Positions 64 to 22,616 of a DNA stretch of 64,000 bases are shown piece by piece. The notes below the pieces were generated by a model. It saw only the letters and a list, made by a program, of their open reading frames with translations, did no database searches and was not told the origin of the DNA. Position 1 is the first letter of the stretch; each line of letters opens with the position of its first letter. The position numbers and the translations under genes are program-made. The DNA is taken from NCBI GenBank assembly GCA_963733375.1, contig CAVTDB010000003.1, positions 160,001 to 224,000 on the forward strand. The letters are read 5' to 3'. Origin of the DNA: Nitrospirota bacterium. GTDB lineage: Bacteria > Nitrospirota > JACRHJ01.

Positions 64-432
64 CTATTCTTTCATGACCGGCAATCCGAGCTCGGCAAGG
101 CGCTTCTCCTCGCCATCGGCCCAATAACTCTTAGTGTTGGGGTCGTACAAGAGGTTTATGTCTTTCATTATCGGCGGTATTGGGCCTGTGTTTTTTGCAA
201 GTCTGAAGAGACGCTCCCTGCCCGGCTTTGGAGATCTACTCCTGTAGCCGACTAGGGTAATATATCCTGCAGTTTTGAGCGTGCCCAAATAGTGGGTCAG
301 ATTCTCGACCTCGGATTCTGAAAGCCTTGCAATGTCCCGAATAGCGAATGGGCCTCTAATGATCCTCATCACTTGCCAGGCGCGTTCACGCGCGGTATTT
401 CTAACCCGCTTGTTTTTGGTAGTGCCTTTCAC
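64..432 (-). CDS. Winged-HTH-like protein of Mu-like element A, downstream of the ATPase
   Basis: 122 aa; AWQVMRI...F.IRDIARLS...YLGTLKTAGYI...RLFRLAKNTGPIPP pattern typical of the gene after MuB in transposable phages; start overlaps the ATPase stop. Confidence 0.65.
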   Translation of the reverse strand: MKGTTKNKRVRNTARERAWQVMRIIRGPFAIRDIARLSESEVENLTHYLGTLKTAGYITLVGYRSRSPKPGRERLFRLAKNTGPIPPIMKDINLLYDPNTKSYWADGEEKRLAELGLPVMKE

Positions 433-1133
433 TTCTTTGCCCGCCAGTCCAGGTCTTTGATGTGGGAAGCATCTATCTGCTTCAGGTTGTTTCGCCTGGC
501 GAGGACCTCTAGGTGGTTGATTATTATCTTCAGGGAGCGGAAACAGCCTGACGATGCTTTTGCCATGGCATCAGAGGCTTCTTCTGTCATGCTTACCTCG
601 CATAGCTCTTTGGCAGCTTTCATTATGTCCTCGTTATCCAGAGGCTGGAACTTGTTTATCTGACTTATGCGCGAGAAGAAGTGCGGGTGGCGCATCAGCT
701 TCTTGTCTACGGACCCCATACCGATTAGAAGGATCGGGGTACCGCATTCGTCGTGAAGGTCACGTAAGGATTCCAGAACCCTTGAGTCATGGCAGCAGAA
801 GTCAGCCTCGTCGACAATCAGCATGACGTTATTTCCTATGAGCAGTTCTACCGCCTGACCGAATAAGTTTGAAAACCTGTAATATGGCTCGGCTCCAAGG
901 GCATTGACGATCATCTCGAAAAACCACCTATGAGAGATTGCGGCCCTTGCCCGGACGTATACGGCATTTGAGCCTTTGCGTCCGACGAACCATGTGCAGG
1001 TCTCTGTCTTGCCGAGGCCGGGGTCAGAGTAGATTAGTCCGAAGCCGGGGACTCCATTGCCGCGCTCTTTCAGGTTGTCGATCATCTCGACGGACCTCAT
1101 GACGTTCTTAGTCTTGACAAACACGTTGTGCAT
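429..1133 (-). CDS. MuB-like AAA+ transposition ATPase (element A)
   Basis: Walker A-like SDPGLGKT, Walker B LIVDEAD, LRDLHD, FSRI; start moved to ATG at 1133 behind an AAGGAGG RBS. Confidence 0.9.
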   Translation of the reverse strand: MHNVFVKTKNVMRSVEMIDNLKERGNGVPGFGLIYSDPGLGKTETCTWFVGRKGSNAVYVRARAAISHRWFFEMIVNALGAEPYYRFSNLFGQAVELLIGNNVMLIVDEADFCCHDSRVLESLRDLHDECGTPILLIGMGSVDKKLMRHPHFFSRISQINKFQPLDNEDIMKAAKELCEVSMTEEASDAMAKASSGCFRSLKIIINHLEVLARRNNLKQIDASHIKDLDWRAKK

Positions 1134-1155
1134 GATGCACCTCCTTGTTAAATGG

Positions 1156-1178
1156 AAAAGGCCCCAAGAGGGGCCTTT
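1156..1178 (-). terminator. Hairpin between transposase and ATPase genes
   Basis: AAAAGGCCCC-AAGA-GGGGCCTTT; T-run follows on the minus strand. Confidence 0.55.
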
Positions 1179-1180
1179 CA

Positions 1181-3181
1181 TCAGACATACGAGGCGAGCC
1201 TTGCCTCATATTCGGTTAGCCAGCTTCTTTCGTCAGGGCTTAAGTCCTGCCTGCTTTTGAGTGCCAGATATTTGTCGTAGTCTGATTTGTATAGGCCATT
1301 GCTTTTTGTTTTTTTACTTCTTACTATTCCGTCTGCAACCGTCATATGACTGGAGGCAAGCTTTGCCTCCAGTGCCTCGACGTGTTCCGCTATCCTGGGA
1401 ACTGTGGGCACAATCTCATGCCAGGGCAGCACCGCATCCTTGGAGGCGGCCTTGGCCATTTTAACGACCTTTAGAGTCTGGCGCTTAAGGGAGCGTTTCC
1501 TGCGGATGCCTTCCTTCACCGCGTCCATAGTCACCGGGTTGCCGGTAAGCTTTGCCATCGAGTGGACCGCCTCTACCAGCTTAGCTGCGCCCAGGTATTC
1601 GCCACGTGTTGTGTAAACCAAAATCTGAGTGAGGTCGAAGAAGCTGTAGCGTATGCGGACTTTGTCTCGTAAACCGTAAAGGGCCTCGTGGAAGTACTCG
1701 TTGCCGAGGAACCTGATGCCGTTCCTGCCGATGGACGCCGTCTCAACGGATAGCATAAGGTAATCAAGCTCACGTGCATTTATTCCATTACCACGTCCTG
1801 CATTAAGGACCTCGCCCGGTGTGTGCCCATCGAGGCCGCCGTGTGGCTGTGTGCGGTAATATTCCCGCCACTTGCCTATCATGGCCATAGTCTCCGGTAT
1901 TGTGGGTACCCAGTCGTTATGCAGGCTCTTGAGGAATTTTTCATTCCGTTTCATGTAGCCGGGTTTATCCTCTATGGAAGCGCCAGTAAACGAGGGCATT
2001 AGCCTCTCAAACGAATCGGAGAACGTCCCGAAGAAGCGCTCAATCGGTTTGCTCTGCGCGTTATATGGCCAGGCAAAGGACGTAATAATGCCGAGCCTCG
2101 CAAACATCCCGTAGAAGCCGCACTCCTCAAGGCTCAACTCGCTTGTAAATACCTTCGCCTTGAACGCCTTGCCATTGTCGAGCAGGGCTGCCTTCGGAAA
2201 TTTGCCCAGCTCAAGGACTGCATTACGGAGCGCTCCAGCAACGGCCTGGATGTTCTCCTCGACCATAATCTCATAACCTAACAAGTCACGGCTGGCCCAG
2301 TCGTAGAAACCAACGAGTACCGCACGGCAAGGTTTTCCGGTGTACGGGTTTATCACCTGAAAATTAAGCCTGTGGCCGTCGGCGACCAGAACGTCGCCGA
2401 CATCAAGAAGGGATGAATCACGTTTCAGGAACGGGAGCACCTTGTCGTTTAGCGCCTTCTCACCTTCACGGAGCGCAATCCACAGGTCGTAATGGCGCTT
2501 CTTGAAGTTATCGACAAACCGGCGAAGGGTCATGCCTGATGAATGCGAGGGGAGGCCACGGCGTTCCAGAATATACTTTGTCAGTTTTATTGCCGTCTCG
2601 ACCTTGACCTGGTTCTGATGCAGAAGCTGCGTAAGGAGCAGGTTGGCCTCGTCTTCGGTGACCTTCGACCTCTCACCGCGATTATTGGTGGGTCCTGGGG
2701 CCAGGACACGGTAGTCGCTGTCCCCGTCCTTGTATGCCTTCTCCCACCGGTATAGCGTCCCGCGCGAGATGGTGCCCAAAACCTTGAATATCTCCGGAAG
2801 CAGATGGCCGGTATTGTATGAGAGCAGGAAACAGCCCAAAGCGTCTCCTACACTACACGATGCGATAGCGATTTTCTTGTCCTTGTGCCAGGCACCAAGC
2901 AGGTCGGCACGAGCAAGTGCCGATTTTTCGGTCCGTGCGGGCAGGTGCCTTTTATCGGCTGCACATATATTGGAAGATCGAGTCTGGTCCGTTTTACACT
3001 TAAGGTAGTTGTCTTGAACTTCAGGTGGGAGGGCGGAGAGAGGGATCAGGTACTTCCAGCCCGATGTGCCACGAGGGACTTTCTCGGCTGGCATTTTTCC
3101 CAGGCTGATGAGCCTCTGGACCGACCTGACCGTTATTCCCAGGAGGTCCGCTACCTCGGTAATCTCAAGTCTTGATTCCAT
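1181..3181 (-). CDS. MuA-like DDE transposase (element A)
   Basis: 666 aa; N-terminal HTH, VADGH (D), LLDNGKAF (D), SKPIERFF (E), Mu transposase C-terminal GIRF...Y...VRIRY. Confidence 0.92.
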   Translation of the reverse strand: MESRLEITEVADLLGITVRSVQRLISLGKMPAEKVPRGTSGWKYLIPLSALPPEVQDNYLKCKTDQTRSSNICAADKRHLPARTEKSALARADLLGAWHKDKKIAIASCSVGDALGCFLLSYNTGHLLPEIFKVLGTISRGTLYRWEKAYKDGDSDYRVLAPGPTNNRGERSKVTEDEANLLLTQLLHQNQVKVETAIKLTKYILERRGLPSHSSGMTLRRFVDNFKKRHYDLWIALREGEKALNDKVLPFLKRDSSLLDVGDVLVADGHRLNFQVINPYTGKPCRAVLVGFYDWASRDLLGYEIMVEENIQAVAGALRNAVLELGKFPKAALLDNGKAFKAKVFTSELSLEECGFYGMFARLGIITSFAWPYNAQSKPIERFFGTFSDSFERLMPSFTGASIEDKPGYMKRNEKFLKSLHNDWVPTIPETMAMIGKWREYYRTQPHGGLDGHTPGEVLNAGRGNGINARELDYLMLSVETASIGRNGIRFLGNEYFHEALYGLRDKVRIRYSFFDLTQILVYTTRGEYLGAAKLVEAVHSMAKLTGNPVTMDAVKEGIRRKRSLKRQTLKVVKMAKAASKDAVLPWHEIVPTVPRIAEHVEALEAKLASSHMTVADGIVRSKKTKSNGLYKSDYDKYLALKSRQDLSPDERSWLTEYEARLASYV

Positions 3182-3722: not shown

Positions 3723-3800
3723 ATTGCTGCAATTTTGCTGCAGTTGCCGATTCTGGCAAAAAAAAGGACTCACGGAAGTCCGTAAGTCCTTGATTTAAAA
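3723..3800 (-). repeat. Diverged copy of the region downstream of tRNA-Val (arm-type repeats plus terminator)
   Basis: ATTGCTGCAATTTTGCTGCA...GGCAAAAAAAAGGACTCACGGAAGTCCGTAAGTCCTTGATTT is nearly identical to 39973-40049. Confidence 0.9.
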
Positions 3801-4167: not shown

Positions 4168-4587
4168 TCATTGCCATTGGCTGGCGTCGCTATATGTCTC
4201 TGTCGGAGTTATATCGTTCGAGGGTTCCGACGCGGGCCCTGTACCCACCTCGTTAGTTGCCATAACAGTAAAAGTATAAACGGTCCCCTTTGTAAGGCCG
4301 GTTACAGTTATTGGGCTTGATGTCCCAGTCGCTACAAGCGTAATAACTCCGGGATTTGAGATAACAAAATATGATTTAATAGGACTGCCGCCGTCAGATT
4401 CAGGCGCGGCAAAACTCACGATAGCCTCCCCGTCGCCCGCCGTTACTTGAACATTGATCGGCGCGCTTGGGACAGTTGCAGGAAAACTTGAATGCTGGTC
4501 AAAGGCAAGTAAAACGAAGAATAAGAAAACAGTCATCTTTAGAATCTTCATGACTCTAAGCCTCCTTTTTATCATGAGAACTCCCAT
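4168..4587 (-). CDS. Secreted fibronectin type III domain protein
   Basis: Hydrophobic N-terminal signal; PSAPINVQVTAGDGEAIVSFAAPESDGGSPIKSY...GLTKGTVYTFTVMATNEVGTGPASEPS. Confidence 0.85.
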   Translation of the reverse strand: MGVLMIKRRLRVMKILKMTVFLFFVLLAFDQHSSFPATVPSAPINVQVTAGDGEAIVSFAAPESDGGSPIKSYFVISNPGVITLVATGTSSPITVTGLTKGTVYTFTVMATNEVGTGPASEPSNDITPTETYSDASQWQ

Positions 4588-7125
4588 ACTATTATTATCC
4601 CAGGTTGTCCGTCTGAACCGACATACCCGGTGCTGCTGGTTGAAGTCGCGCCGCTACCGCCCGACCCATAGCCATAGGCATTACTATTCGAGCCTTGCGT
4701 GGTACTACCCCAGCCGCCCGCGCCAAATTGCCCGCTCCCTCCAAACCCGCCTTTCGCGACAGAACCAGATAACCTTGTTCCGCACTCCCCGCTATGTCCA
4801 TAGTCGTTGATGTCTCCATTAACAGCGATCGAAGGCCCGCCCCCGTTAACTATGGCAACCGAGGTTCCATGCGCCATGCCGGCCCCGCCGTTACCCCCAT
4901 CTGCGGTATAGGTTATGCCATTATATGTAAAACTCGTGTTCCCGCCTGTGCCGCCACTACCCCCGGAACTACTGCCGTGGGTCCCATAAACTCCTACGGT
5001 ATATGTGCCCGTGCCTGAGAAACCGGTTATTCTTTTGAGCAGATATGCGGCTGAAGAGCCGCCCCCGCCAGCCGCCGCTTGAGATGACGCTCCCGACGCG
5101 CCGCCACCTCCACCGCCACCTCCAACCATTTGGATAATAATGGAATGCGTCCCCAACGTCGGCGTATAGGTTGCATTCGTACCGGAAGTAAGATATTGGA
5201 CATTTAAAAGACTACCCGATGTGCCGCTCGAAGAAGGCAGATTCCCGATCGTTATATATTTTTTCGCGCCGGAGGCTGCGCTGTCCTCTATCAAAAGTAC
5301 GTCGTTACTTGCCGGGGTAGTTTTTTGGCTGAAGGATGAGAAATCATTGGCCGAGCGTTTGAGCTGGGCATCATTTGTCACGCTGTTGAGGTTGACTTGT
5401 GAGGCAGTTATTCCAGTAAGCCCTGAGCCGTTGCCTGTCGGAGTCAAATAATCCGCCCCTGCCACGGCCGCGCTGATCGCCGTACCATTGCCCTTCAATA
5501 GCCCGTTGACATTAGTGGTTATGCTTATCGCGGGTGTGGATGTTGCATTCGCTACGCTTCCACCGAAGCCGTTGGCAGTCGTTACCGAAACAGATGTTAC
5601 AGTGCCGCTTCCGCCGCCACCTACATGCCTTGACGAATATCCTGAAAAAGCTGCCCAACTGTGCGGAATATAGCCGTTCCAAGTTGCACCCGTGACATTG
5701 CCGAATGTAGTTTCAGCCATCGTCCTGTGGCGAATAGCAATTGGAGACTGGTAATCAGTGTCAATAGCCGCGAGCGAGAACCCCCCCGAGCCGTCGCCTT
5801 TTAGGACCGATGCACCGGATGTGGCTGGAGCAAAGTCTACTCCGGACGTCGCCGCGCTGACGGCCGTGCCATTACCTTTCAATAAGCCGTTGACATTGGT
5901 GGTTATGCTTATCGCGGGTGTTGAATTCGCATTCGTTACGCTCCCGCCGAAGCCGTTACCACTCGTTACCGAAACCGAAGTTACCGTGCCACTACCAATG
6001 CCTGTAAGGTGCGAACCGTCGCCGTAGAAAGCGGTCCCCGATACGTTCCTGAATGTAACTTCCTGCGCATATGGGTTCCCCTCCCACCACTCTCCTTGAC
6101 TCTCTCCCCATCCGCGCATTGCCGTGTAAGGCATATTACCCCAGAAGCGGTTACTATCCACAAGAAAAGGCCCGTCTTCCAAGGATGTCGGTGCACCAGA
6201 GTATTTAACCCTACAGTTGTTCAGATCAGGGTCATACCAAATATAGATATTTCCAATACGAAGAGGAGTGCCATTCCAAACCATATCATATAAGGAAAGG
6301 CCGTTACCCACCTGTGCAGAGGTTATGCCTGTCAGATGTGAGCCATTGCCGTAAAAGATACCGGAAACATTCCCGAATGTAGCCTGTTTGCTACCCTTTA
6401 TCGCCCCAGTCATTGTCCCTCCTGACAGGGGTAAGCAAACGGTTGTCGGACTGGTAATCCAGGAGTTTAAAGTACCGCTTGCGTCAGCAACGGGAATTGC
6501 ACTTGGTGTCGGCATCGTGGCCTCTGCTGAGAACCGGTATCGCACCCACCTGGGAAGCTGTAATGCCCGTAAGCTGAGAGCCGCTGCCGTTAGGTATTAG
6601 ATAATCGGTTCCTGGTAAAGCGGCGCTTATTACGCCTGATGAGGCTTTTAATATGCCCGATGTTGCGGGGTCAATCGTGTTGCCCGCACCACCATTTCTT
6701 GCCCAGGTACGATCGTCGGTAATTGTGAGGACGCCGGAGGCATTTAAGACATTCCAAAGGGGAATGCCAGCGGGATTATATGATCCTGAGTCTACCGAAA
6801 GCGATGCCGTGCCTCCTGATGTAACAATGCTTACATAATGTGCAGAGGCACCCGTATAGTTAGAAAAATCGATGTTGCCATCAGGGACAGTATAGACGTT
6901 ATTTCCAAAGCAGGTTTTACCGCCTTTGTAGCTTACAGTCGTACCGCTTGTGGAATATGGATTAAAAGATCTTTTCGAAAACTGCCAGAGCTGGTTCAGG
7001 TTCTCCCGAAGCTGAGCAGATGATACAGAAGCTCCAGTGGCGGGATAATTTTCCTGGAAGTCGGCAAATGTTGCAGTCGATATAAAAAGGATTAGAAGAA
7101 CCAGTATAAAATATCTTTTCCCCAT
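4572..7125 (-). CDS. Signal-peptide-bearing tail-fibre-like protein with Gly-rich C-terminus (frameshift near 6535)
   Basis: ORFs 6484-7125 (signal peptide MGKRYFILVLLILFISTATFA) and 4572-6545 join; GNGSxLTGITASQV repeats, duplicated GTVTSVSV...TPAISITTNVNGLLKGNGTA, terminal VGGGGGGG...GQPGIIIVWEF domain. Confidence 0.7.
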
Positions 7126-7145
7126 ATCTCATTCCTCCTTTTACT

Positions 7146-10100
7146 TCAATTTGATGGATAACATGTAGCTGTGAAACTTGAAATCTGTCCTGCTGATGAT
7201 GTGTTTGAGGAAGTTACATCAGCTCTTATCTGGAAGAACCTCAAGGTTACGGGATTTTGCGTCAAAGGTTGCCAATCGCTCCACGGATCTGTGGCATTGG
7301 ATTTATAACTGATTTCGTATGATACAGTCAGATTTGGCGTGGTTGCCGCTTGCGCGCTTATTATAACCGATTGTATTTGACCCAAATCTATGGAAGAAGT
7401 TGTCCATGAGCCTGAAGATGCTGTCGGGACATCATAATTGATATTAGAGTCATAAACCAAATCAGCGTCATCATAATGATGCTGGGTATCCAATGCCAGA
7501 AGTCCTGCGGGCAGCCAAAATATGCCTGAACCCGTACCGCCAGCCTTAGAAACTATTATTGAATTGCCCGCGCCGGGAATCTCAGTATTTCCTGCACTAT
7601 CTGTCGCTCTAGACTTTAGAGTGTATGATCCGACCGCAGGCTGCACCCACGCATAGCTCCAAATAGCCCAGGTGCCATTGCCGGATGTATCCTGAACGCC
7701 GTCCGACTGGCCCTTCCATGTCGCGCCACCGTCTGTGGAAATTTCGATTTTGGATATTCCTGAGCCTACGGGGTCTGTAGCTGTGCCAGCAATGGTATCG
7801 GTGGCACCGCAAATATAATAAATGACCGCTCCATTTACAGGATTTGTAATTGCCGAGATTGGCGGAATAACGGTTGTCACATTTATGCCTGGCCCTGGAA
7901 ATTCAATATTCCCCTGGTTATCCATTGCCCTCGACTTAATATTAAATTGTCCGTTAGAAGTCGGTGTCCATGTATAGCTCCAATTATCGGTGCCAACCGC
8001 ATCTATCCAGTCAGAACCGTTTATCGATATCTGGACTTTTTTAATCCCCGCACCGCTTCTATCAGTTGCAGTGCCCGATATTGTGTTTGCCCCATTTATG
8101 GTAGCGCCGTTCAGAGGAGAGCTTATTATTGAAGATGGGTCGAAATTAGTCAGTTTCGAAAGGAAATAGCCAGCACCTACATTCCCGTCAAAATCGCTCT
8201 GATTTGTGCCGGAAATGAATATTGATCCGTCGTCTTCTACCGTTATGCCATCTATCGAATCCGCTGAAGTGTTACTAAATATGTATTGCCATATTTCGTT
8301 TCCATTTGGGTCGTACTTAGATGCAAACATATTACCTTCATAATCATATCCTACGACGTATGCATAGCCGTTAAGGTCTAAATCAACATCTCCCGCATAG
8401 GCCAGCTGGTCATTTTTCCATAATTGGTTGCCTTGACTGTCAAGTTTTGAAATATAATCGTCTCCGATTATATAAATATTCCCAGTCTTATCAGTTCTTA
8501 TCGCATTTATGGACTCAGCAAGCATTTTGTTCCATTGTAAGGCACTGTTTCCACTAAATTTTGCCATAAAATTTTGATTATTCATGGTTCCAGATACAAT
8601 TACATTGCCTCCCGGGTCCACGCATATCGGCCCAGAATAATCGAAAGAGCGGGATGAATCTCCGGAAATGCCGTAATTTTCTGTCCAAATATTATTGCCA
8701 TTATTGTCATATTTAGCCAGAACTAAACTCGCAACGTTAATGATTGAGGTTTCGTCTTGAGGATATGTGGTATAACCAGTAATATAGCAGTTACCCGAAC
8801 TATCTATCGCGATTCCCGAGGGAAGAAAGATATGGATTGTTTAATGAATTTGACCATAATAGATTTCCGTTTGGATCATATTTTTGAATATAAGTATTCC
8901 ATCCATCATTAATAGAGACAAAACTATTGCTATTTTGATCCCCAACTATATTTGTTATCCGGTCGTCGTAGTAGGCCCCGGTTATAATCCAGGTTCTATT
9001 CCCTGATGTGTCATATTTTGAAATAAAAGAACTCCCAAAAGATAAACCCGATATATAAAGACTTGCATTTTGATCGCAAGAAATTCCCTCTATACTTGGA
9101 TTTGAAAAATCAGAAAAAACCTTTGTCCATTCTGTTATAGGATTAATGTGATAAATATCTGTTTTCTCCGGTTCAACGTAATCATTGTTTTCGATCCCAA
9201 AATATTTCAATGTGGTATCGCTTAAAATAGGAATGGGCGACTGATATACGGAGGACGCAGTTGTGGGATTCGATCCGTCTGTAGTGTAATATTTCGTAGT
9301 AGTTGATGGAGATAATCTAACCACCTGTCGAAGATTATATGAGCCTCCGGCCGGGGTTGCTGTTGTTGTAGTTATGACCGTCACACCGGGTCCCGGTGTT
9401 TCAATATTTCCCGCTATATCGTAGGCTTCTGTTAAAATTGTAAAGGTTCCACCATCGGGGGGCACTGTCCATAAATAAGTCCAATTTGTCCCTGTAGGTA
9501 AAGTGTAATTCCACGTATTTCCTCCATCAGTAGAAATCGCTAATACGTATGCCCCGGAGCCAGCGCCATCGGATTCTGTACCTGTTATCGTATATGTCTC
9601 ACTGTTACTTATTTGTGCGCCGGGAAGCGGGTCTGTAATTGATGAAACGGGTGGCGTGGTGTCTAAAGTTATCGACGCTTGGTATACTTCAGATACATAA
9701 CCTGAGCTATCTTCATATTTAACAAAAACAGTCTTTAGGCCATCGCCTGATGTTAGTGACCAACTTTTTGTGGTATTATAGGGCTCCCATTGTCCTGTAG
9801 CGAATGACGCATCATTACTTATCATCATTTGAGTTACACCTATTGGTGCATAGGCGTTTAAAGAAAGAGCTACAGTTGGGTAGTTTGTAAACGCCTCCTG
9901 GCTATTAATAATTATAGAGCCTACTGGAAGTGTGCTATTATCAACATCAACCATTACTCCAATAGTCGGTTGTTCAACATTTTCACTGTTATCCGTAGCT
10001 CGCGATTTTAGAAAGTACGTTCCATCCGTCGGCAAAGTCCAGGTGTAGCTCCAATTAGTCGTCCCAGTGGCTTGATTCCAGGTGCTTCCTCCATCAGTTG

Positions 10101-12303
10101 AGATTTCAACTTTTTGGATACCATTGCCAGTCACATCCGTAGCAGTTCCTGAAACCGTATAGCTTGCTCCATTGACTACCGCACCATATGAAGGACTGGC
10201 TATCGTTGAGAAAGGCTCTGCCCGAAATTCGATTGCCCCAATATCAACAGCTGAACCTATAATTCTCGGATTACCCTCAAAATCTGTATCCGGTAAATTA
10301 GGTGCAGAATTATTGCCTATATCTATTAATTGCGAAGAACTATTCAGTCTGAGATCTCCAAAAGCGGAATTAATAAATCCTGCATCATAATTAAAATTAT
10401 TCGACTGAGTAAAAGATGTGCCGTTTTCGAGGTAAACCTTCGCAGGGTCGTAATCGTTGTTCTGGAAATACATGGATGGTGCATCATTATCATAATAACC
10501 GATGTCCCCACCATAGGTTGCTGTATTGTTTTCTAAAATATTATTATAGGCATTGATAACAGAAGAGCCTTCGTTTTGATAATACAATCCTCCGCCTGTC
10601 CCATTCGGTGACGTGCAATTATTTTGCGTAATTGTATTGTTGACAAGATTGATGCTGGCTGCGTAGTCGCTGTATATATAGATACCTCCTCCAAAGTTAC
10701 CTGCTGAATTATTGTAAAGCACATTATTCGTCATCAGGACATTCGAAGAATCGTAACTTTCGAGATATATACCACCACCCTCCGAACCTCCTGACGATGT
10801 ATTTCCTGCTATGGTATTTCCATTAAACGTTAATCCAGCACTATCAGAATAAATATGCAAGCCAGCTCCATCATTACTTGAAGAATTCTGGACCACCGTG
10901 TTTCCAGAGAAATCAAAGGTAGCATCCTCGGCACCAATAAAAATGCCTCCGTAATAACCGGAATTTCCATAAATAATATTATTATTTATCGTATAATTGC
11001 CTTTATAGCCATCAATTAAAACACCAGTACTTAAATTCTGAGCGACAATATTATTACTGAAATCAAGACTACCGTTATCTAAAGATATATAAAGCCCAGC
11101 CTCTTGTCCGCTTCCTTTCGTTATTGTCAATCCTTCTACTGTTATCCCAGAATCGGGCGAATCCGACCAACTATAAATATACAAAACATCGCCTTGTCCT
11201 TCCCCATCAAGCACCGTACCTGTGGGATCTTGGGTAGAACATGTAAAATCTCGACTATAACCGCCGATTAAAACCAATTTATATGGTTGCGCTGAAATAT
11301 ATTGGAATGCTTGATTTTGATTTGCCGATACTTTATATATTCCTTGCGCCAATAAAATTAGATTGTTAGTATTATTAGTCTGCGCCTCGGTTAAGGCGGA
11401 TTGCAGTTCCTGGCTGGTGCTTACTTTGTAAACTACACCGCTTTCATTACCAAAACCTGCGCCATTTATATCGCTCTTTGTAGTAAAGCTCCATATTGGC
11501 CCATCGGACTCCACGTTATGGCTGTCTTTTGCCACCACTTTCCAATAATAGGTAGTATGGAATTGATAGTAATCGAGTGTATAGCTCGTTGCCTCGCCGC
11601 TCCAGACCAAAGGTAAATTGTTAGGGTTCGTCCCGCAATATAAAGAGTATTTCGCAGTCGTATCCGAATCTTGCCAGGTCAATGGGGTATATTTAGGGTT
11701 AATTCCAGTTGAATTGTTGAATGGAGAAGTATAAGTAGGTACATTCGGAGGCAGCGATGACATTGTGGTAAAACTCCACACGGGTCCATCTGACTCCGAA
11801 TTTTGGCTGTCTTTCGCAATTACTTGCCAGTAGTAGGTAGTATGGGATTGATAAGAGTTTAGAGTATAACTTGTCGTAGTGCCGCTCCAGACCAAAGACA
11901 GGCTAGATGGAGATGTTCCGGAATATACATAATACGCCACCGTGTCGCCAGTGTCCGGATCTCCGCCCTGCCAGGTCAATGGTGTCTGCGCCGGATTAAT
12001 GCCTGTCGCATTGTTGAATGGAGAAGTATACGTAGGGACGTTCGGGGGCTGATTTACTGGTGCATCCGGCGTTGTTGTGGCCTGCGTAAGACGGTTCCCC
12101 ACATTATCATAGGTGTAATTAGCGGCCGTTGAATTATTGCCGAAGGTAGTTTTTATGAGTTGGTCGGTTACATCGTAGGTGTGGCGGATAACGTCACTGG
12201 CTGTGCCCCAAACGGGAAATGAAACTATCAGGGCCAGAGCGCATATTGAGGCAACTAGTATAATCTTGTGAATTGATCTTGCCAAGGACTGTACAGGGGT
12301 CAT
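7146..12303 (-). CDS. Large secreted adhesin-like protein (short YD module, FN3-like repeats, beta-helix, Ig-like, SBBP-type propeller); frameshift near 8810
   Basis: Signal peptide; YDVTDQL...YTYDNVGNRLTQ; two PPNVPTYTSPFNN...YYWxV.AKDS repeats; NNTITQN beta-helix ending GNPRIIGSAVDIGAIE; ISTDGG Ig repeats; KYD..GN..W propeller repeats continue into ORF 7146-8621. Confidence 0.75.
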
Positions 12304-12568
12304 AACGTCCTCTGATTTATTTTTCTCTACAATTTAAACTTACCTCTTTAAGTTCTTATTTATTCTCACTCTAAGTTCAGTTATCCTGTCCAAAAACCTA
12401 TTTAACTCCAGTCTCTTTTCTGATGATCGCTAATTTGTCACGTATCTGTGATGGTAACGTTGATTCATTGATACGGGATTCATTCAGGTTGCGAAGAAAT
12501 TTATCTTATTAGTCATGGTCTTAATGTCCCGAAAGTCAACGTGGCTCTGGCATTGTATGCAAAGGCGT

Positions 12569-12985
12569 TCATTTTCCACCTTTAATCATAGTTACGGTAA
12601 AATAAATAAACAGCAAACCTAACATTAAATTAAGCAGGGCGAAAATAATCCCGCTATAAGGAACCACAGAACCGGATACCAATATTCGAGTCCCGTCATA
12701 AATGAAATATCCGCCCGAGAAAAACATAAGAAATCCACTTAGACCAATATAAAGCAGAAAAAACCATTTTGCTGTTTTGTTATTTTTATAGAACAAGAAT
12801 GCCAATAAACTTAACAGAAAAAATTGGCCCAAAGCGACATATACAAGGTAGGACCTGTAGTCGTGTTTCCCTAAATAATTATTAAAAGCGCTTATAACTC
12901 TCACTAAATAATATGACAATACTACGCAGATGATTACTAATTTGTTTCTAAACAACTCGCGTATTATTAACATTGGTTTCCTCAT
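12569..12985 (-). CDS. Putative immunity protein (about 4 TM)
   Basis: Small hydrophobic AT-rich ORF whose ATG overlaps the Rhs stop codon. Confidence 0.6.
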   Translation of the reverse strand: MRKPMLIIRELFRNKLVIICVVLSYYLVRVISAFNNYLGKHDYRSYLVYVALGQFFLLSLLAFLFYKNNKTAKWFFLLYIGLSGFLMFFSGGYFIYDGTRILVSGSVVPYSGIIFALLNLMLGLLFIYFTVTMIKGGK

Positions 12986-15900
12986 TTGCATTTCTTGTTT
13001 ATCTTATCCTCATACTTTTTCAGGGTTTCATTGTAATCGTACCACCATGAATCGTTGAAAGCATCCCATATCCCATAATCTTGGCTTAACTCATACCATT
13101 CATAAGACTTCTGAATGTGCTCTTGGTATTCAGGTGGAGCATTAGGAAAATCAAAATTTTTGAATTTGTCGGCTTCCTTAGATTCTTCTTCTGCTTTCTC
13201 ACAAAACATCTTCCGCATAACATTCCTGAATCCATATGCCATAAAAGGACTAAATAATGGATCTACAACACGTTCGATTATTGTTTTTTCAGCTAAACCC
13301 AAAGGATCAATCCTATTCACAGGGCTGTTGCCTACGAACCCATATAAGTTCAATCCTCCTCTTTCTCTTAATGGGTCTCGTGTCATCCACTTCCCAATTA
13401 TCGGGTTATAAAACCTATACCCGTAGTAATTCGCCCCCAAGCTCGCATAGTAAGGCTTCGTCGAGAACTGATACGGCTGGTCGAGCGTCCCGCTCTTCGA
13501 TACAAGATTTCCAAAGTCGTCGTATTTATATGCCGCAACAACGTTCTGATTGCTGTCAATCACGGCGCTCACATTCCCTTTGCCGTCGTAGAGATAATTA
13601 TAATGCTGCCCGCCCTGAGCCAGTTCTAACAACCCCCCGATACCGCCAGGAGCTTTTGGATTCCAGAAGTAAGAGCGGGACACCGCGTTAGAGCTGTCCC
13701 TCTCCTGCACTACGTTAAAATTGTCATCCCTTATGAAGCGTGTTTCAACGCCATCAATAAATTGTTTTGCAAGCAAACCATCGCCGCTGTAAAAGAACTG
13801 ACAACTATGCTGTACGCTTTGTGAGTCCGTATACGATACAGTGCTCAACCTGTTCTCGGCATCATATGTCGCTGTAGCCGCATACCCGTCAGGCGTAAGC
13901 CAACTGGTCATGTTGCCGTCCGCGTCATAGGTATATGTTCTTGCCGGGTTGGTGGAATTTGTAAGCTGATTAACATTATTGTAGTTGTAATTTACAAGAT
14001 TGTTCGTCAGGCTCATCGGCTGTCCGTTAGTAATCGTCTCCGTGTCACGCATGTCCACGTTCGTTGGCGAATTATAAGTAAAGTCGGCCGCATTTATAAC
14101 TTGCGGTACGCTGTTCATATTAGATACTTCTGTTAGCCTTTGGAGTGGATCATACTGGTAGTTGGTTACGCTCCCATTCGGCCTCGTAAGACTAACAGGA
14201 ATCGGGCTCGGGCTGCCAGTAGAATACGCGGAGGTAAATACACGAGTGCCGCTCGTGATCTTATTTAATCTGCTAATCGTGTCATATCCGTAAGTAATGG
14301 AATCGCCGCCCTGTTGTTGCAGGTTCGCCCTTCTGCCGTTATCATCATACGAGTATGTAAGACTTGGACTGCTATCCCAAGGCGTCTGAACAGTGAGTAG
14401 CTTGGAATTAGCATCATAGCTATAATTCCATGCCCCAATGCCGTCGGTCCGGCTTGTTACGCGGTTATAAGTATCATAGGTGTAGCTAACATTCGGCGTA
14501 GTTTCATCTGAATATGTAATGCCAGTGAGCTTATTATTAGGGTCATATGAATAACTGGCCGTTATGCCCCGTGCATTCTTCTTGCTTATAAGCAGGTCCT
14601 CGCCATCATATACATAGACCTCGCCTTTTCCATCGGCATAAGACTTCCCTACAAGACGGTCGGATGAATCGTAAGAGAACCATGTAACATTGCCATTGGC
14701 ATCAGTCAGCGCCATCATATTACCGTCAGCATCATAGACATATTTGATTATAGTGTTGTCCGGATTTTTAACCTGCGTAAGGTGCTTCGTCGCGTCGTAG
14801 GTGTAATAGGTCGTGCGACCCGACCTGTCGGTATAGCTGTCTATCATTTTGGGGCAGCAGGAAGAATAGGTATATGCCTCCTGCTTTCCATCCGGGTAGG
14901 TTATGCTGGTTATCTGGTCGAGGTCATTATATAAATATGTGAGTATGAGTCCTGTTGTGTCGGTGACAGTTTGGATACGTCCTTTGCTATCATAAGAATA
15001 GCTGTAAAGGACAAGGCCCCCGCGTTCAATTGTGTGAAGCTTGTATTTTGCCGCACCTGTCGGACCGTAATAGGTATAAGTGGTGACGTTGCCAAGAGGG
15101 TTTGTCTTTGACGTTACCTGTCCAAAGCTGTTATATGTATAGCTCGTTTTTTTGCCGAGACGGTCAGTCAAAGAAGTTACATTATGAAAACCATCATAGC
15201 CAAAAGATACGGTTCCGAGACCATTAGAGATACCCGTAAGGTCTACATTATTCCCGGCATAATTCAGGATGGTTGTATTACCTTTGGCGTCTGTTACCGA
15301 AGTCTTATTGCCCATATTGTTATAGGAAAATGAAGTGGTATTACCCTTGGAATCCGTTATGGATGAACGCTCAGTGGTAGCCCAATCATATTGATAAGTG
15401 TTCACCCCGCCGCATTCATAATGCTCGGAATTAATTTCCCCTTTTTCATCTACAAGGACATAGTCGTATAAGGTCTTGGGTACATTGGACATGAAATTGT
15501 TATTTGAGCCATCAGCATATGGAATATAATTATTGGCGCTCACATGCCAACCTTCAATCAAATTTCCATCGTACTGATATTCCTGTTTATTGCCCACAGG
15601 ATTGGTTATAGTAATTCGATAATCCTGATCCATTGTCCCACCGGGCGCGGGATAGTCATTTGAATTATTAGGAATTCCATCCGGAAGTTCAGTATAGAAA
15701 CTCCAGGTTCCTCGCGAATTGCCTATAGAGGAGATATTTATGTTGCTATCGTAAGTCATTGTTGATGTATAACCGCCCATGTCAGTTATGCTTACGAGAT
15801 TTCCGTCGGTATCATATTCAAAAGAAGCGGATCTACCGAATGGGTCGGTTACCTGCTGAACAAGGTTAGCACCCGATTGGTAGGTAAGGGTAGTTACTTG

Positions 15901-17607
15901 ATTTAAGGCATCAGTAATTGTCACAAGCCTTACATTCGAATCGTAACCAAAGTTAAGGCTCTGTCCGTATCGATCTGTTATTTTCGTTAGAAAGGGCTGC
16001 AGAGAGTTCGTTCCGTCGGGAATATTGTATTCATAAACCGTGTCGTCTGGAAAGCGCAAGGTAAAATGATTTTCAGCTATTTTTGTTAAGGTATTGAAAA
16101 CGCCAAACGGACGAATATAGCCCCCGGAACCGTCGGGTGAATAAATATCACGTCTTCCATCCGGCATGAATAAAATCACCTGGCCACCAGTATCTACAAC
16201 AAAATAGCTCCCATAGTTTAACTGCCACTTATTGCCAAAAGGTTCATTTTGGTTTATGGCAGACTGCGAATTATAACTTAGCGTAATTTCAACAGAAGGC
16301 CCAACGGGGCTTTGGTACCACATGGGCGTGTCTTTAACATACATATTCATGTTTATGTTATTAACCCGCCACTTTGGTGAACCGCAGCCGTCGCCGCCAC
16401 CGCTATCACAACAGTCGCCTTCTTCACATTTAGGTGGTCCTAAATCATCTTCGGGCCTAGGTTCTCCACAGCAACCGCCAGTACAGCCCTCCATTTCTGA
16501 TGCAGATAATTTAATGCCTATATTGATGGGGGCATCCTTCGCTTGTAAAATAAGCACGTTCCCGTCCCATTCATTATCAAACTCTTGGGGCGCCTGATGA
16601 AATCTCCTGCCAGCTTGTGGATCAAAAAAGTCAAGACTCTTATCTTTTTTTATCTTATCTAATACCCAATAATGACCACCGTCTCCTGGATTGTGAGATT
16701 TTAACTGTACAATTGAGGGTAAGGGCAATTTGTTCAAGTCATCTTTCGTAATCTTAAGGCCGGCGACGCTATAGCCATATTTCAAAGCGATGTCTTTAAG
16801 TTCCTCCATACTGTAGCCTGAATCCGCAGTTGGTTTCATCATCCGCAGTTCATTTGCCTGTTTCACTTTGCCTTGCTTTTCCATTATGCTCGCCAGAGCA
16901 AGCGTTCCGCAATTCAGCATGGCTCTTTTATGAGCTTTGAAGAGCGACAGTCTATGAATCCAGTGACTGGCGTATGTCCTATCCCTCCAATCATCACTCT
17001 TGATAAGTTTTGTGAAAAGTTTACCGGCCTCGCCAAAGTTATTCTCATAAACCTTTAATACTCCGAGACGGAGCGAAGCTTTATTGACCATTTTCTTCGC
17101 CCCGTCATAAGTATTGTCTTTATCCTTGGTAAGGATTGTAGTGAAATAGGTTTCGGCCTCGCTGTAGCGGCCATTGTATTGAGCGTCGCAACCACAATGC
17201 AGCATGGCTTCCGAAGCCCATGGGCTTCGAGGGTATTCTGTGAGATGCTGCTTTAACAAAGAAGCCGCTTCCTTGTAATTGTGTTTGTTCCATTCCTGCA
17301 TGGCCTTTGCAAAGGACTTGTTAGCCCTGTCTACATCGGCAGCATGCCCTTTGTCTCCAATTGGCTTGATAATATCTTCTGTGGGATAGAGCTGCCCGCC
17401 TAATTGACCAGCTGCCATTATGTCGGTTGCAGTTGGATTTGTGAGGTCAAGGGGTTTTACCGAGTGTTTTACTCTGGGGATTTTAGAATCGGCATATAAA
17501 TAATTTGTATAGGGCGGCGAAAGAAGGAAGAGCAGCGATAAAACAGCTATGACAATAGAAGCTCTAAAAGATAGTTCTCTGCTAAACAATTTCTGCCTCC
17601 TTCGCAA
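12982..17607 (-). CDS. Rhs/YD-repeat protein: signal peptide, TPR, C39 peptidase, Rhs core, C-terminal toxin-like domain
   Basis: TPR (YPRSPWASEAM); C39 motifs NCGTLAL...HYWVL...DFFDP; many YD repeats; Rhs core YGYRFYNPIIGKWMTRDP...NLYGFVGNSPVNRIDPLGL. Confidence 0.92.
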   Translation of the reverse strand: MRRRQKLFSRELSFRASIVIAVLSLLFLLSPPYTNYLYADSKIPRVKHSVKPLDLTNPTATDIMAAGQLGGQLYPTEDIIKPIGDKGHAADVDRANKSFAKAMQEWNKHNYKEAASLLKQHLTEYPRSPWASEAMLHCGCDAQYNGRYSEAETYFTTILTKDKDNTYDGAKKMVNKASLRLGVLKVYENNFGEAGKLFTKLIKSDDWRDRTYASHWIHRLSLFKAHKRAMLNCGTLALASIMEKQGKVKQANELRMMKPTADSGYSMEELKDIALKYGYSVAGLKITKDDLNKLPLPSIVQLKSHNPGDGGHYWVLDKIKKDKSLDFFDPQAGRRFHQAPQEFDNEWDGNVLILQAKDAPINIGIKLSASEMEGCTGGCCGEPRPEDDLGPPKCEEGDCCDSGGGDGCGSPKWRVNNINMNMYVKDTPMWYQSPVGPSVEITLSYNSQSAINQNEPFGNKWQLNYGSYFVVDTGGQVILFMPDGRRDIYSPDGSGGYIRPFGVFNTLTKIAENHFTLRFPDDTVYEYNIPDGTNSLQPFLTKITDRYGQSLNFGYDSNVRLVTITDALNQVTTLTYQSGANLVQQVTDPFGRSASFEYDTDGNLVSITDMGGYTSTMTYDSNINISSIGNSRGTWSFYTELPDGIPNNSNDYPAPGGTMDQDYRITITNPVGNKQEYQYDGNLIEGWHVSANNYIPYADGSNNNFMSNVPKTLYDYVLVDEKGEINSEHYECGGVNTYQYDWATTERSSITDSKGNTTSFSYNNMGNKTSVTDAKGNTTILNYAGNNVDLTGISNGLGTVSFGYDGFHNVTSLTDRLGKKTSYTYNSFGQVTSKTNPLGNVTTYTYYGPTGAAKYKLHTIERGGLVLYSYSYDSKGRIQTVTDTTGLILTYLYNDLDQITSITYPDGKQEAYTYSSCCPKMIDSYTDRSGRTTYYTYDATKHLTQVKNPDNTIIKYVYDADGNMMALTDANGNVTWFSYDSSDRLVGKSYADGKGEVYVYDGEDLLISKKNARGITASYSYDPNNKLTGITYSDETTPNVSYTYDTYNRVTSRTDGIGAWNYSYDANSKLLTVQTPWDSSPSLTYSYDDNGRRANLQQQGGDSITYGYDTISRLNKITSGTRVFTSAYSTGSPSPIPVSLTRPNGSVTNYQYDPLQRLTEVSNMNSVPQVINAADFTYNSPTNVDMRDTETITNGQPMSLTNNLVNYNYNNVNQLTNSTNPARTYTYDADGNMTSWLTPDGYAATATYDAENRLSTVSYTDSQSVQHSCQFFYSGDGLLAKQFIDGVETRFIRDDNFNVVQERDSSNAVSRSYFWNPKAPGGIGGLLELAQGGQHYNYLYDGKGNVSAVIDSNQNVVAAYKYDDFGNLVSKSGTLDQPYQFSTKPYYASLGANYYGYRFYNPIIGKWMTRDPLRERGGLNLYGFVGNSPVNRIDPLGLAEKTIIERVVDPLFSPFMAYGFRNVMRKMFCEKAEEESKEADKFKNFDFPNAPPEYQEHIQKSYEWYELSQDYGIWDAFNDSWWYDYNETLKKYEDKINKKCK

Positions 17608-17984
17608 AAACTAATAATAAAACTTGATACTTAGATGCTTAAGATTTGAACTCTGTTAAAGCAAGAATATCGGGATTACGTAGGGCTCGGATAGAGCAAA
17701 GGGCTATTAAACAAAAACTATGACAATAGTATAAGCAAAAAACACGCCACATAGATTTGGCAAACTAAAAATTTTATTTAAGTTTATGATATTATTTAAT
17801 AATCTTTTCTCATTTAGATTACCTCAAAAAATGATTTTTTGCGCATTAACGCTCCAATATTATGCATTATCGCTCATTTTTAAGTATATTCTGTCAGATG
17901 TGAGCAGCCCCGCTTGTCGATATTGCAGGTTTATTTCAAAAAACAGTTTGAAGGGGGTGGGTCTATTGGGAGATTATAGTCAGA

Positions 17985-20673: not shown

Positions 20674-22616
20674 CGACAACCCCTTCGTGCCAGCCACTCC
20701 CGTCACGCCAGTAATGCTGCAGTTTATTATCAGTACGGAGCACAATAACTTCGAGATTAAACCCATAGCTTCCCTCAACCAAAGCGATAACTGCCCACAC
20801 ATCATGGCCGAAGGTGGCGCTTTGACGCCAGAGCATATCGCTGGAGTTAGCACACCACCAATGCTGTACGGTTCCCCCCGAAGTAGCAACACAGAGTTCA
20901 AAGTTTCCTACGGACGTTCTCGTCTTTAGCACCGTATTGTCCTTCAATCATGCAGGGGGGACTACTGACACTACTTCCAAAATTTGCACCTTCCTTCCAT
21001 GCCATACCATGGTCATTATCACGCCGCCAGTGTTGCATCTTTCCGGAGCTCAAAACACATACCAGTTCAAAATTGCCTTTATTATAATAATGGCTTTGTA
21101 TTAGTGTGGCTCCGCTGTGCATTACGTCGCTGGCAAAGCGACCGCCGTCGTGCCAACCCGCCCCATCTCGCCACCAATGATTCAACTTGCTGTCCGCCGT
21201 ACGTACCACGACTTCAAAGTTTCCGGGAGCATTATAATTACTTTGAATAAATCCAGGAACTCCTGCCGCATCGCTTGGACCGAAAATTCCTCCGTCGTTC
21301 CATTTCTGGCTTGACTGATCAAACCACCAATGATGAAGGCGTCCCGAACGTGTTAGATGGACAGACTCAAAATTGCGGTTAAAGGTAGTGCCTATGAATG
21401 TGGGACAGGACTTCAACGTATCATTTCCAAAAAGCGGCCCTTGGTGCCAGGGAAAACCTGTAGCCGAGTTGTCTCTCCACCAATGCCTGATCTGATTGCC
21501 CGGAGCTGCGGTCAACATCTCGAAATTCCGGTGCAAGGCTCCATTACCGCTTTCAATCATGCAGCCACTGTGAATGCGCCTTTTTGTCCATGGATCAGGA
21601 TTTGTACCCTGAAAACCTAACTTAGCGTAGGAATCAATGTCACATTCACCATAGCCGATACGGCCAAAACCACCCTGACCCCATGCAGGCCCCCAGGAGT
21701 TCTTTACAATCCAACAACTTAGAGAATCATCATAGCCGATGATCAACATAAAATGTCCACCCTCGGCTTTGTTAGGGGTAAACCCTATCATGTTTTGTTT
21801 GTGATAAACACCGGTGCCATATGAAAAGAAATCATCCCAGACTTCGATAAAAGTAGTTATGGGTCCGACAGTATCCAGCCATTTTTTCTGGTCAGCAATA
21901 TTACCAATTGGCGTATAATCCGGTATTTTGATCGTGCGGCCTGAGCGATCCGCTGTAGGTGTGTAGGCGACTTGGTCATACGGTCCGCCGCCCGTACCAC
22001 CGCAGCCTGAACATCCCGATGATGTAACAGGCCAAGCAAAGCAACCTGGATCGGCCGCACCATGATCCTTCATCCAGTCCAAAGCAGCGCCAGGGTTGCC
22101 GCAATCACAGCAGTGGCTACCCATACCCTTATGAACATCTCCTTCTGATATCCAGGGCCAAACGCAGTGCTCAATTCGGGCCATTGCTTCCACGAGGGCT
22201 ACCGCAGTGAAACACCAACAAGCCTCACAACCATTCTGATCGCGAAAACTGGTAATCCACGGCCAACCCCACCTGTTGCGCCAATCGAGGCTTGCCGGCA
22301 CTGTGCCTCCCGACGGTAAAATTCCCTCTCCGGGTTCTATTTCAGGCAGAGAACCTAAATGAAACTCTTTTTTGACGACAGATTCAGGAATGATGCCATG
22401 CGCTATCCTACGCTGAAGGATAAAAGGATTATTTGGTTGGATCTTAAAAAGATTTATAAAGTCGATTGGCTTTACATCTACCGATCGTATTAAACCCTCC
22501 TTTAGACCGCCTAGTGTACGTACAGGAATGTCCTGAATATCCAGAAGATTATCATTAACGGACCATCTTGCTTTGTTCTTTTCAAGAGTTTCCCTCAGAT
22601 CTTTTATTTTCGGCAT
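20660..22616 (-). CDS. Papain-family (C1A) cysteine protease with C-terminal Trp-rich repeat domain (frameshift near 20910)
   Basis: SLDWR, DQNGCEACWCF, GGHFMLIIGY, VKNSWG..WG..GF; GNFE.VV...L.HWWRD repeats continue in ORF 20660-20947. Confidence 0.88.

Follow-up and report, generated by a model that had tools for sequence, protein, structure and literature searches.

The DNA considered here is a stretch of 64,000 nucleotides from a Nitrospirota bacterium (GTDB lineage Bacteria; Nitrospirota; JACRHJ01), corresponding to positions 160,001 to 224,000 of contig CAVTDB010000003.1 in assembly GCA_963733375.1; this whole stretch is referred to as the window. The part analysed, positions 4168 to 17607, is a gene cluster that starts with an Rhs protein carrying an N-terminal cysteine peptidase domain of the C39 type, continues with a small membrane protein and a large adhesin-type protein (the partner), and ends with genes for a tail-fibre-like and a fibronectin type III (FN3) protein. 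With a cut-off of at least 120 amino acids it comprises seven open frames, arranged head to tail from 17607 to 4168 and all on the minus strand. An earlier interpretation made from the letters of the DNA (the sequence-only reading) had reported five co-oriented genes; the co-orientation is real, but the adhesin and the fibre gene are each split into two frames. The features of the first three genes are the following:

17491 to 17589, minus strand: export signal, Rhs residues 1-33, with a basic start, a 15-residue hydrophobic core and ...LYA before DSK (inferred cleavage site)
17395 to 17490, minus strand: leader-like segment, residues 34-65, ending in AGQLGG (GG at 64-65), the proposed C39 cut site
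16933 to 17352, minus strand: TPR-like helical repeats, residues ~80-219, with weak matches to TPR, YfiO and YbgF
16537 to 16914, minus strand: C39 double-glycine-type cysteine peptidase, residues 226-351, with Cys227, His306 and Asp323 (PF03412, expectation value (E) 9.6e-18)
16297 to 16485, minus strand: Cys-rich linker, residues ~369-431, in which GGCCG... and then CG.P.W are conserved
13294 to 16296, minus strand: DUF6531 plug, RHS/YD repeat cage and Rhs-associated core up to DPLGL, residues 432-1432
12985 to 13293, minus strand: variable C-terminal domain, the presumed toxin, residues 1433-1535, of no known family
12569 to 12991, minus strand: membrane protein, immunity candidate, 140 amino acids with about four hydrophobic segments, overlapping the Rhs stop by 10 nucleotides
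7146 to 12303, minus strand: partner gene, about 1718 amino acids if read through, in two open frames (8800-12303 and 7146-8621)
12073 to 12189, minus strand: YD tag, partner residues 39-77, two YD repeats immediately following the signal peptide
11764 to 12033, minus strand: FN3-like domain behind the tag, partner residues 91-180, conserved in 21 sequences

The Rhs open frame extends from 12982 to 17607 and represents the sole Rhs gene of the genome assembly. Its likely start is the TTG codon at 17589, which gives a protein of 1535 amino acids, because a GAAGGAGG box lies six bases before this codon and a gene call of the same length exists in the protein collection (P0001). A Kyte-Doolittle scan shows a single hydrophobic peak at residues 6-24. 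The cage region is matched by the families PF20148 (DUF6531), PF05593 (12 stretches, E 4e-75) and TIGR03696 (E 7e-19). With its repeat cage, a core ending in DPLGL and a C-terminal end that varies between relatives, the protein belongs to the Rhs/YD polymorphic toxins. No PAAR, VgrG, SpvB, TcdB-mid, NHL or FN domain was found in a Pfam scan of the Rhs protein, in which the TIP domain was not searched for, and no ATP-binding cassette (ABC) exporter domain was found with Pfam and NCBIfam.

Conservation in the N-terminal part was judged on 20 full-length and 31 N-terminal sequences of the family. In both alignments Cys227, His306, Asp323 and a CCG cluster are invariant, as is the stretch A60-G65 (AGQLGG), which is also the most conserved pattern picked; C373, C374 and G375 of the linker are invariant or nearly so. 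Aligned with the solved chain of ComA, the three residues of the peptidase fall on the motifs QMDCG, HYY and ADP, whose Cys, His and Asp we take to be catalytic. The position of Cys227 aligns with an Ala in the peptidase-domain chain 7n87 of PCAT1, which is presumably a variant with the catalytic Cys changed to Ala. An AlphaFold2 (AF2) model of residues 34-445, with a predicted local distance difference test (pLDDT) value of 82 and a predicted template modelling (pTM) score of 0.79, consists of helical repeats followed by a C39 fold. In Foldseek the peptidase domains of PCAT1, ComA and LahT150 take the top ranks (TM 0.71-0.75), and the helical part, with helices at positions 47-186 of the model, is paired with YbgF and BamD. 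The leader segment bearing the GG reaches a pLDDT of 79-89, and is thus placed and not floppy; the linker is disordered in the isolated N-terminal model.

Across the loci of the family the GG of AGQLGG is found anywhere from frame residue 21 to 272, and the stretch before the motif varies in length and content. The invariant motif, the intact C39 triad and the variable stretch upstream of the motif suggest that the C39 domain may be a self-releasing peptidase, which would cut behind AGQLGG and free a conserved body from a variable anchor or pro-region. Some relatives (P0003, P0007, P0077) possess extra domains ahead of the TPR and C39 parts, namely CHB_HEX_C, a GH2-like TIM barrel and DUF1573/Ig-like domains.

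At the other end of the protein, the C-terminal ~100 residues gave no match in Pfam, NCBIfam or PHROG and were found in none of the 60 related loci (0/60) described below. One weak match (E 9e-6) was obtained among 1.84 billion representative proteins, and a protein atlas search returned no usable match for this end. Other members of the family end in Tlde1, Peptidase_M91, Tox-PAAR-like or DUF4329 domains. Furthermore, L013, L046 and L050 have additional Rhs-end fragments, reminiscent of orphan toxin-end cassettes, in the interval from the main Rhs gene to the partner. The unshared C-terminal end, the differing ends of the relatives and the fragments behind the main gene in several loci argue for the behaviour of a polymorphic toxin. 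The 140-amino acid membrane protein has no family match in Pfam, NCBIfam or PHROG, and the protein atlas returned only unnamed clusters at 0.90-0.91. Small membrane frames occur at the same position in several other C39-Rhs loci. Its overlap with the Rhs stop, its membrane nature and the lowest G+C content of the cluster make this protein a candidate immunity protein.

A search with Rhs residues 30-440 yielded 144 proteins at E <= 0.001, and all of the best 120 of these 144 matches contain both C39 and RHS domains; most are about 1500 amino acids long. A scan of genomes gave 60 loci, which span at least eight phyla according to the names in the sequence records. They include Nitrospirae, Desulfobacterota-type lineages, anammox Planctomycetes, Verrucomicrobia and Kiritimatiellales, as well as purple and colourless sulfur Gammaproteobacteria, Poribacteria, Zixibacteria and Sphingobacteriales. 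For neither the N-terminal architecture of a Gly-Gly leader, TPR and C39 on Rhs proteins nor the YD-tagged partner was a published description found in full-text searches, which do not cover subscription journals; such journals and supplements could still contain one.

When the frames called in the 60 loci and in the window were clustered all against all, one widely shared neighbour family besides the Rhs genes emerged, with 35 members in 33 loci, and the adhesin of the window is one of them. Second in extent come generic histidine kinases, present in 16 loci, followed by a DUF7948-SBBP propeller protein in five; any other specific neighbour family is restricted to at most five loci. Thirty-six loci were assessable, i.e. 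they include the end of the Rhs gene and 1 kb or more beyond it. In 27 of the 36 a tagged partner adjoins the C39-Rhs gene, 26 times downstream on the same strand and once directly upstream, and three loci too short to assess show a tagged partner as well. Most of the 26 downstream partners (16) directly follow the Rhs stop, at distances of -50 to +246 bp and in several cases overlapping it, and 10 of the 26 have one or more frames in between. The linkage also holds when the search starts from the partner. Metagenomes scanned for the aligned tag and FN3-like domain yielded 72 loci, 20 of them strong, and an Rhs gene lies upstream in 11 of the 20 strong loci; where at least 4.4 kb of upstream sequence is available, a same-strand Rhs gene is present in eight of nine, seven of them with a C39 end. 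Conserved linkage among the C39-Rhs homologues, on which the sequence-only reading had made its five-gene proposal depend, is therefore seen for the adhesin (27/36) but not for the fibre and FN3 genes (0/60).

In five loci (L053, L061, L069, L047, L067) a protein of about 734 amino acids with DUF7948 and an SBBP beta-propeller is encoded close to the Rhs gene. In four of these five the propeller protein adjoins a short partner of 223-256 amino acids, which has the YD tag without FN3, as if the targeting part had been split once more.

Around 13 related loci, 86 flanking frames encode unrelated proteins (housekeeping functions, sensors or transposases), and no component of a type VI secretion system (T6SS), a toxin complex (Tc), a two-partner secretion system or an ABC-C39 exporter was found among them. 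ABC ATPases occur in four loci and are generic and distant from the Rhs gene. Since the flanks are unrelated and without genes for a secretion machine, the module appears self-contained and mobile. VgrG, PAAR and TssC were not found in the genome assembly (2.39 Mb in 26 contigs, 81% complete); a search for TcA (VRP1) gave nothing either, but the control genomes remained silent too. The absence of VgrG and PAAR genes nearby, noted already in the sequence-only reading, agrees with these searches of the assembly and of the 86 flanking frames. Its proposal of an Rhs protein independent of T6SS and Tc and linked to an adhesin agrees with the lack of PAAR, VgrG, SpvB and Tc domains and with a linkage seen in both search directions.

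The partner of the window is composed of a signal, the YD tag, two FN3-like domains, a beta-helix, Ig-like domains, CHB_HEX_C, an SBBP-type propeller and further Ig-like domains; the repeats of the SBBP beta-propeller were read by eye and have no family match. An alignment of 29 partners shows a signal peptide, a junction of the Ala-x-Ala type, two YD repeats, a Pro-rich linker and, in most of them, an FN3-like domain. The consensus of the tag reads ...ETIxYTYDxMxRLTxVxYxDGTxxEYVYDNLGNRL..., and in the tag alignment A3 (21 sequences) Y10, D11, Y32, D33, G36 and N37 are invariant. The motif is rare, being present in one of 6768 frames of the own genome, which is the partner, and in one of 600 other frames of the loci, itself a partner. 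Partner length ranges from 118 to 2453 amino acids, and the content behind the tag and the FN3-like domain is highly diverse: PKD, TSP3, beta-helix, CarboxypepD_reg, cadherin-like, CARDB, PA14, RCC1, FG-GAP, NHL/teneurin-NHL and Big_5 domains are all seen. Short partners of 118-256 amino acids retain the tag without the FN3 domain. In a model of tag and FN3-like domain (pLDDT 90.6, pTM 0.81) four strands (pLDDT 80-92) precede a beta-sandwich (pLDDT at least 90); Foldseek returned generic FN3 matches for it, with no Rhs, Tc or teneurin chain among the matches listed. The partner was considered as a substrate of the C39 peptidase and dropped, as the junction in partners is an ordinary one of the signal-peptidase type (Ala-x-Ala followed by Glu-Thr) and the tag is not preceded by Gly-Gly.

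We consider it probable, with a fair margin of doubt, that the cluster holds an Rhs polymorphic-toxin module of two to three genes which works without T6SS or Tc and combines a self-cutting C39 peptidase with a tag-docked partner, and that two phage-derived genes lie behind it. As its signal suggests, the Rhs protein would be exported by Sec, and its own C39 peptidase would cut behind AGQLGG, releasing the body of TPR, C39 and cage from the variable N-terminal anchor or pro-region. The cage would enclose an orphan C-terminal toxin of ~100 residues, from which the overlapping 140-amino acid membrane protein would protect the producer; a membrane-bound protector would point to a target in the envelope or the membrane. 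The next gene would provide a Sec-exported surface protein with a two-hairpin YD tag and FN3-like domain, followed by adhesin-type domains that differ by genome. By means of the tag this targeting protein would dock onto the Rhs particle, and the toxin and the targeting function would reside on two exchangeable polypeptides. A physical docking of the partner on the cage may be the most economical reading, because the tag is fixed at the start of the mature protein, is kept in short partners without FN3 and belongs to a gene tightly coupled to the Rhs gene. Co-folding of Rhs residues 66-378, without the cage, with the tag and FN3-like domain of the partner gave a score of 0.00, which means 'no answer' and counts neither way. 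A more specific form of this proposal, a two-component and Sec-dependent 'split teneurin-like' toxin in which a self-released Rhs cage receives an exchangeable receptor-binding protein plugged in via the YD tag, is possible and is put forward tentatively.

Of the other explanations, one would keep the partnership but make it functional and not physical. The tagged protein would then be an independent adhesin or matrix protein, co-inherited and co-expressed with the Rhs protein and, for example, holding cells together for the toxin, while its YD repeats would merely cap the FN3-like domain. The confident folding of tag and FN3-like domain as one unit without any partner fits this view, and the linkage data agree with co-regulation equally well as with binding. 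However, in the 29 aligned partners the mature protein opens with the YD repeats while the rest varies, and the short partners keep the tag although they have no FN3 domain to be capped. In addition, the frequent overlap of Rhs stop and partner start suggests matched production of the two proteins. A purely functional partnership is therefore rather unlikely in our opinion.

Several observations weigh against the proposed docked, self-cutting toxin module and have to be set beside it. The AGQLGG leader is spaced differently from the classical double-glycine leader with its pattern LSxxELxxIxGG. No tagged neighbour is present in nine of the 36 assessable loci (L016, L022, L027, L035, L046, L055, L062, L064, L067), and conversely L084 is a partner locus with 5 kb of upstream sequence and no Rhs gene there. 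The toxin role of the Rhs C-terminal end and the immunity role of the 140-amino acid protein are suggested by position only, and in 16 of the 26 loci the partner follows Rhs without an intervening frame, which means that the expected place of an immunity gene can be empty. Furthermore, a particle of ~170 kDa would have to cross the outer membrane, and no exporter dedicated to the module is linked to it, though the genome has Omp85 and secretins by matches in the assembly, from which two membranes can be concluded. Finally, the partner gene is frameshifted in the assembly, and the evidence for an error comes from one contig of low depth.

This frame change is a matter of one base in a run of C at 8820-8822, across which the SBBP-type repeats continue in the other frame. 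In a contig of the public run X1 a single base is missing precisely at 8820, which rejoins the frames (one contig, depth 2.8). Elsewhere in the assembly secretin matches fall in frames of 63-234 amino acids, some of them in pieces, and one Omp85 match has an internal TAA (contigs C18, C20, C21 and C26), which suggests frequent single-base indel errors throughout. Because of the X1 contig and these interrupted frames the frame change in the partner gene is probably an assembly indel. One base is also missing from an X1 contig at 17666, in non-coding DNA ahead of the Rhs gene. A decaying island, i.e. a non-functional remnant with genuine frame changes in which the Rhs frame alone has stayed intact by chance, could be suspected from two frame changes in two adjacent large genes at a site adjoining a transposase gene and mobile DNA. 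It is improbable in view of the independent contig without the extra base, of the other fragmented genes, which fit indel errors, and of a 1535-amino acid Rhs frame with intact catalytic residues.

Behind the partner gene follow two further genes and a candidate terminator:

4572 to 7125, minus strand: tail-fibre-like gene in two frames (6484-7125 and 4572-6545), opening with a signal-like stretch and containing repeated fibre modules and, C-terminally, a glycine-rich domain
4168 to 4587, minus strand: FN3 gene, 139 amino acids with a hydrophobic N-terminus, overlapping the end of the fibre gene by 16 nucleotides (PF00041, E 3.6e-11)
3764 to 3791, minus strand: terminator-like hairpin, a 12-bp stem and then a run of T, the closest strong hairpin downstream of the cluster and a candidate only

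The frame change of the fibre gene lies near 6531, a site which none of the contigs compared covers. An intact relative of 999 amino acids (P0122; 85% identity to the first frame) spans both frames, and its sequence ...GAIPVSAEAAMPTPS... bridges the junction, matching GAIPV, with which the first frame closes, and SAEATMPTPS, with which the second opens; judged from this alignment, the frames 6484-7125 and 4572-6545 are one gene. The fibre protein matches phrog_863 (E 5e-19), phrog_6202 and phrog_454, and weakly PF21722, and the FN3 protein also matches PHROG minor-tail FN3 parts of phage tail proteins. Among 8000 scored, 2803 partial relatives of the fibre protein were found in metagenomes at E <= 0.001, and no relative of its N-terminal 213 residues was found in viral contigs. 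Relatives of the C-terminal part are present in three of 400 other genomes of the phylum, including one of the same genus (G030) and one of the same family (G054), and none of these three genomes matched the Rhs N-terminal query. The nearest relative within the phylum is a 491-amino acid tail fibre of G030, encoded two genes behind a tape-measure gene; on contig C25 of that genome, at ~9705-16559 (L165), a prophage tail module comprises the 796-amino acid tape-measure protein and proteins of 140 and 849 amino acids. A domain scan of the window found no other phage genes beside the fibre gene. An exported, signal-bearing tail-fibre-like protein, of which P0122 is a second case, is a curiosity in its own right.

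The sequence-only reading had assigned signal-like N-termini to all four non-membrane products. Each of them indeed has a single N-terminal hydrophobic stretch in the Kyte-Doolittle scan, but the FN3 protein has no clear cleavage site. The partner and the fibre gene are 20 nucleotides apart, the fibre and FN3 genes overlap as listed, and no strong terminator-like site precedes 3791-3764, so that both genes are probably co-transcribed with the Rhs module; the total number of terminator-like sites is not above that of shuffled controls. That Rhs, immunity, adhesin, tail-fibre and FN3 proteins form a single delivery assembly, as that reading had proposed from their co-orientation, tight spacing and signal-like starts, is very improbable and is given up here, since relatives of the fibre and FN3 genes were found in none of the 60 C39-Rhs loci and none of the 72 loci of the partner search, their G+C content (0.523 and 0.474) is unlike that of the Rhs module (0.331-0.441), and fibre relatives occur in genomes free of C39-Rhs, the same-genus one in a prophage. 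On these sequence comparisons the two genes are best described as unrelated, probably phage-derived local extras outside the conserved system.

The G+C content of the genome as a whole is 0.554, compared with 0.441 for the Rhs gene, 0.331 for the membrane protein and 0.422 for the partner. The Rhs N-terminal region was found in none of 11 genomes of the same family (0/11) and, within the phylum, in two of 400 other genomes, the relationship being only distant for one of the two. Downstream of the cluster, at 429-3181, a Mu/Tn7-type transposase (rve, Mu-transpos_C) and a TniB-like ATPase are encoded. Before the start of the window (contig 3, 142001-161000) there are an integrase fragment, a type I restriction-modification system, a DUF4062-NACHT protein of 1602 amino acids and a TIR protein. 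Together with the transposase these genes form a mobile and defence island which abuts the Rhs cluster. Because of its low G+C content relative to the genome, its rarity in relatives and the adjoining transposase and defence genes, the Rhs module is regarded as a horizontally acquired island. A comparison with the same-genus genome G030, considered as a means to date the insertion, revealed no common gene order. On the strand of the Rhs gene and some kilobases upstream of it, at 20898-22616, a papain-family protein (Peptidase_C1) of 572 amino acids is encoded.

Several known systems share parts with the one described here. Rhs effectors of the T6SS, e.g. RhsA of Pseudomonas protegens, have the same DUF6531-type plug, YD cage, DPxGL core and variable toxin end as well as a small adjacent gene of the immunity type. 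In contrast to them, the present protein has no N-terminus binding PAAR or VgrG, and no T6SS genes were found in the genome or the flanks; instead there are a Sec signal, the AGQLGG leader, TPR, a C39 peptidase with intact triad and a conserved tagged partner. The leader peptidases of the PCAT/AMS type (ComA, PCAT1, LahT150) share the fold and the Cys, His and Asp residues, and the upstream Gly-Gly would be a possible substrate here too. However, the C39 domain of the Rhs protein is not fused to an ABC transporter, would act outside the cytoplasm as it stands behind a Sec signal, and has its presumed substrate in the same chain, with the Rhs cage as cargo. The TcB-TcC cocoon of the Tc toxins is likewise a YD cage around a toxic C-terminus, whereas here the cage is complete in one polypeptide and lacks SpvB and TcdB-mid. 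Tc toxins build one shell from strands of two polypeptides, which is a precedent for YD strands from a second protein.

A C39-related domain, Tox-PL-C39, has been listed as a toxin domain in RHS-containing polymorphic toxins (Zhang et al. 2012; PMC3482391). The present C39 domain differs in being N-terminal, conserved throughout the family and next to a conserved GG motif, and for these reasons it is more likely a processing enzyme than a toxin. The bacterial teneurin-like proteins (TLPs) are described in the main text of a 2026 paper as YD-shell toxins that depend on Sec, are polymorphic at their C-terminal ends and come with immunity genes and adhesion modules but with no known delivery machine, in which the adhesion modules, FN-plug, NHL propeller and YD shell lie on one chain; that main text makes no mention of C39 or TPR (PMC13018210). 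Compared with this account, FN3-like and propeller domains are here placed on a separate partner, joined, if at all, via the YD tag. The system thus resembles in function a TLP split into two chains, but it is not a member of the TLPs, as the Rhs chain is without NHL and FN domains.

How Rhs and teneurin-like toxins are delivered without T6SS or Tc is called an open question in the same main text (PMC13018210). The system offers two candidates in this respect, a built-in protease with a candidate cut site and a conserved tag of the docking type on an otherwise highly variable adhesin. The C39-Rhs family is widespread. If the split arrangement is true, toxin and target specificity would evolve as separate, swappable cassettes, and bacteria with two membranes would have a delivery route for Rhs toxins that does without a T6SS.

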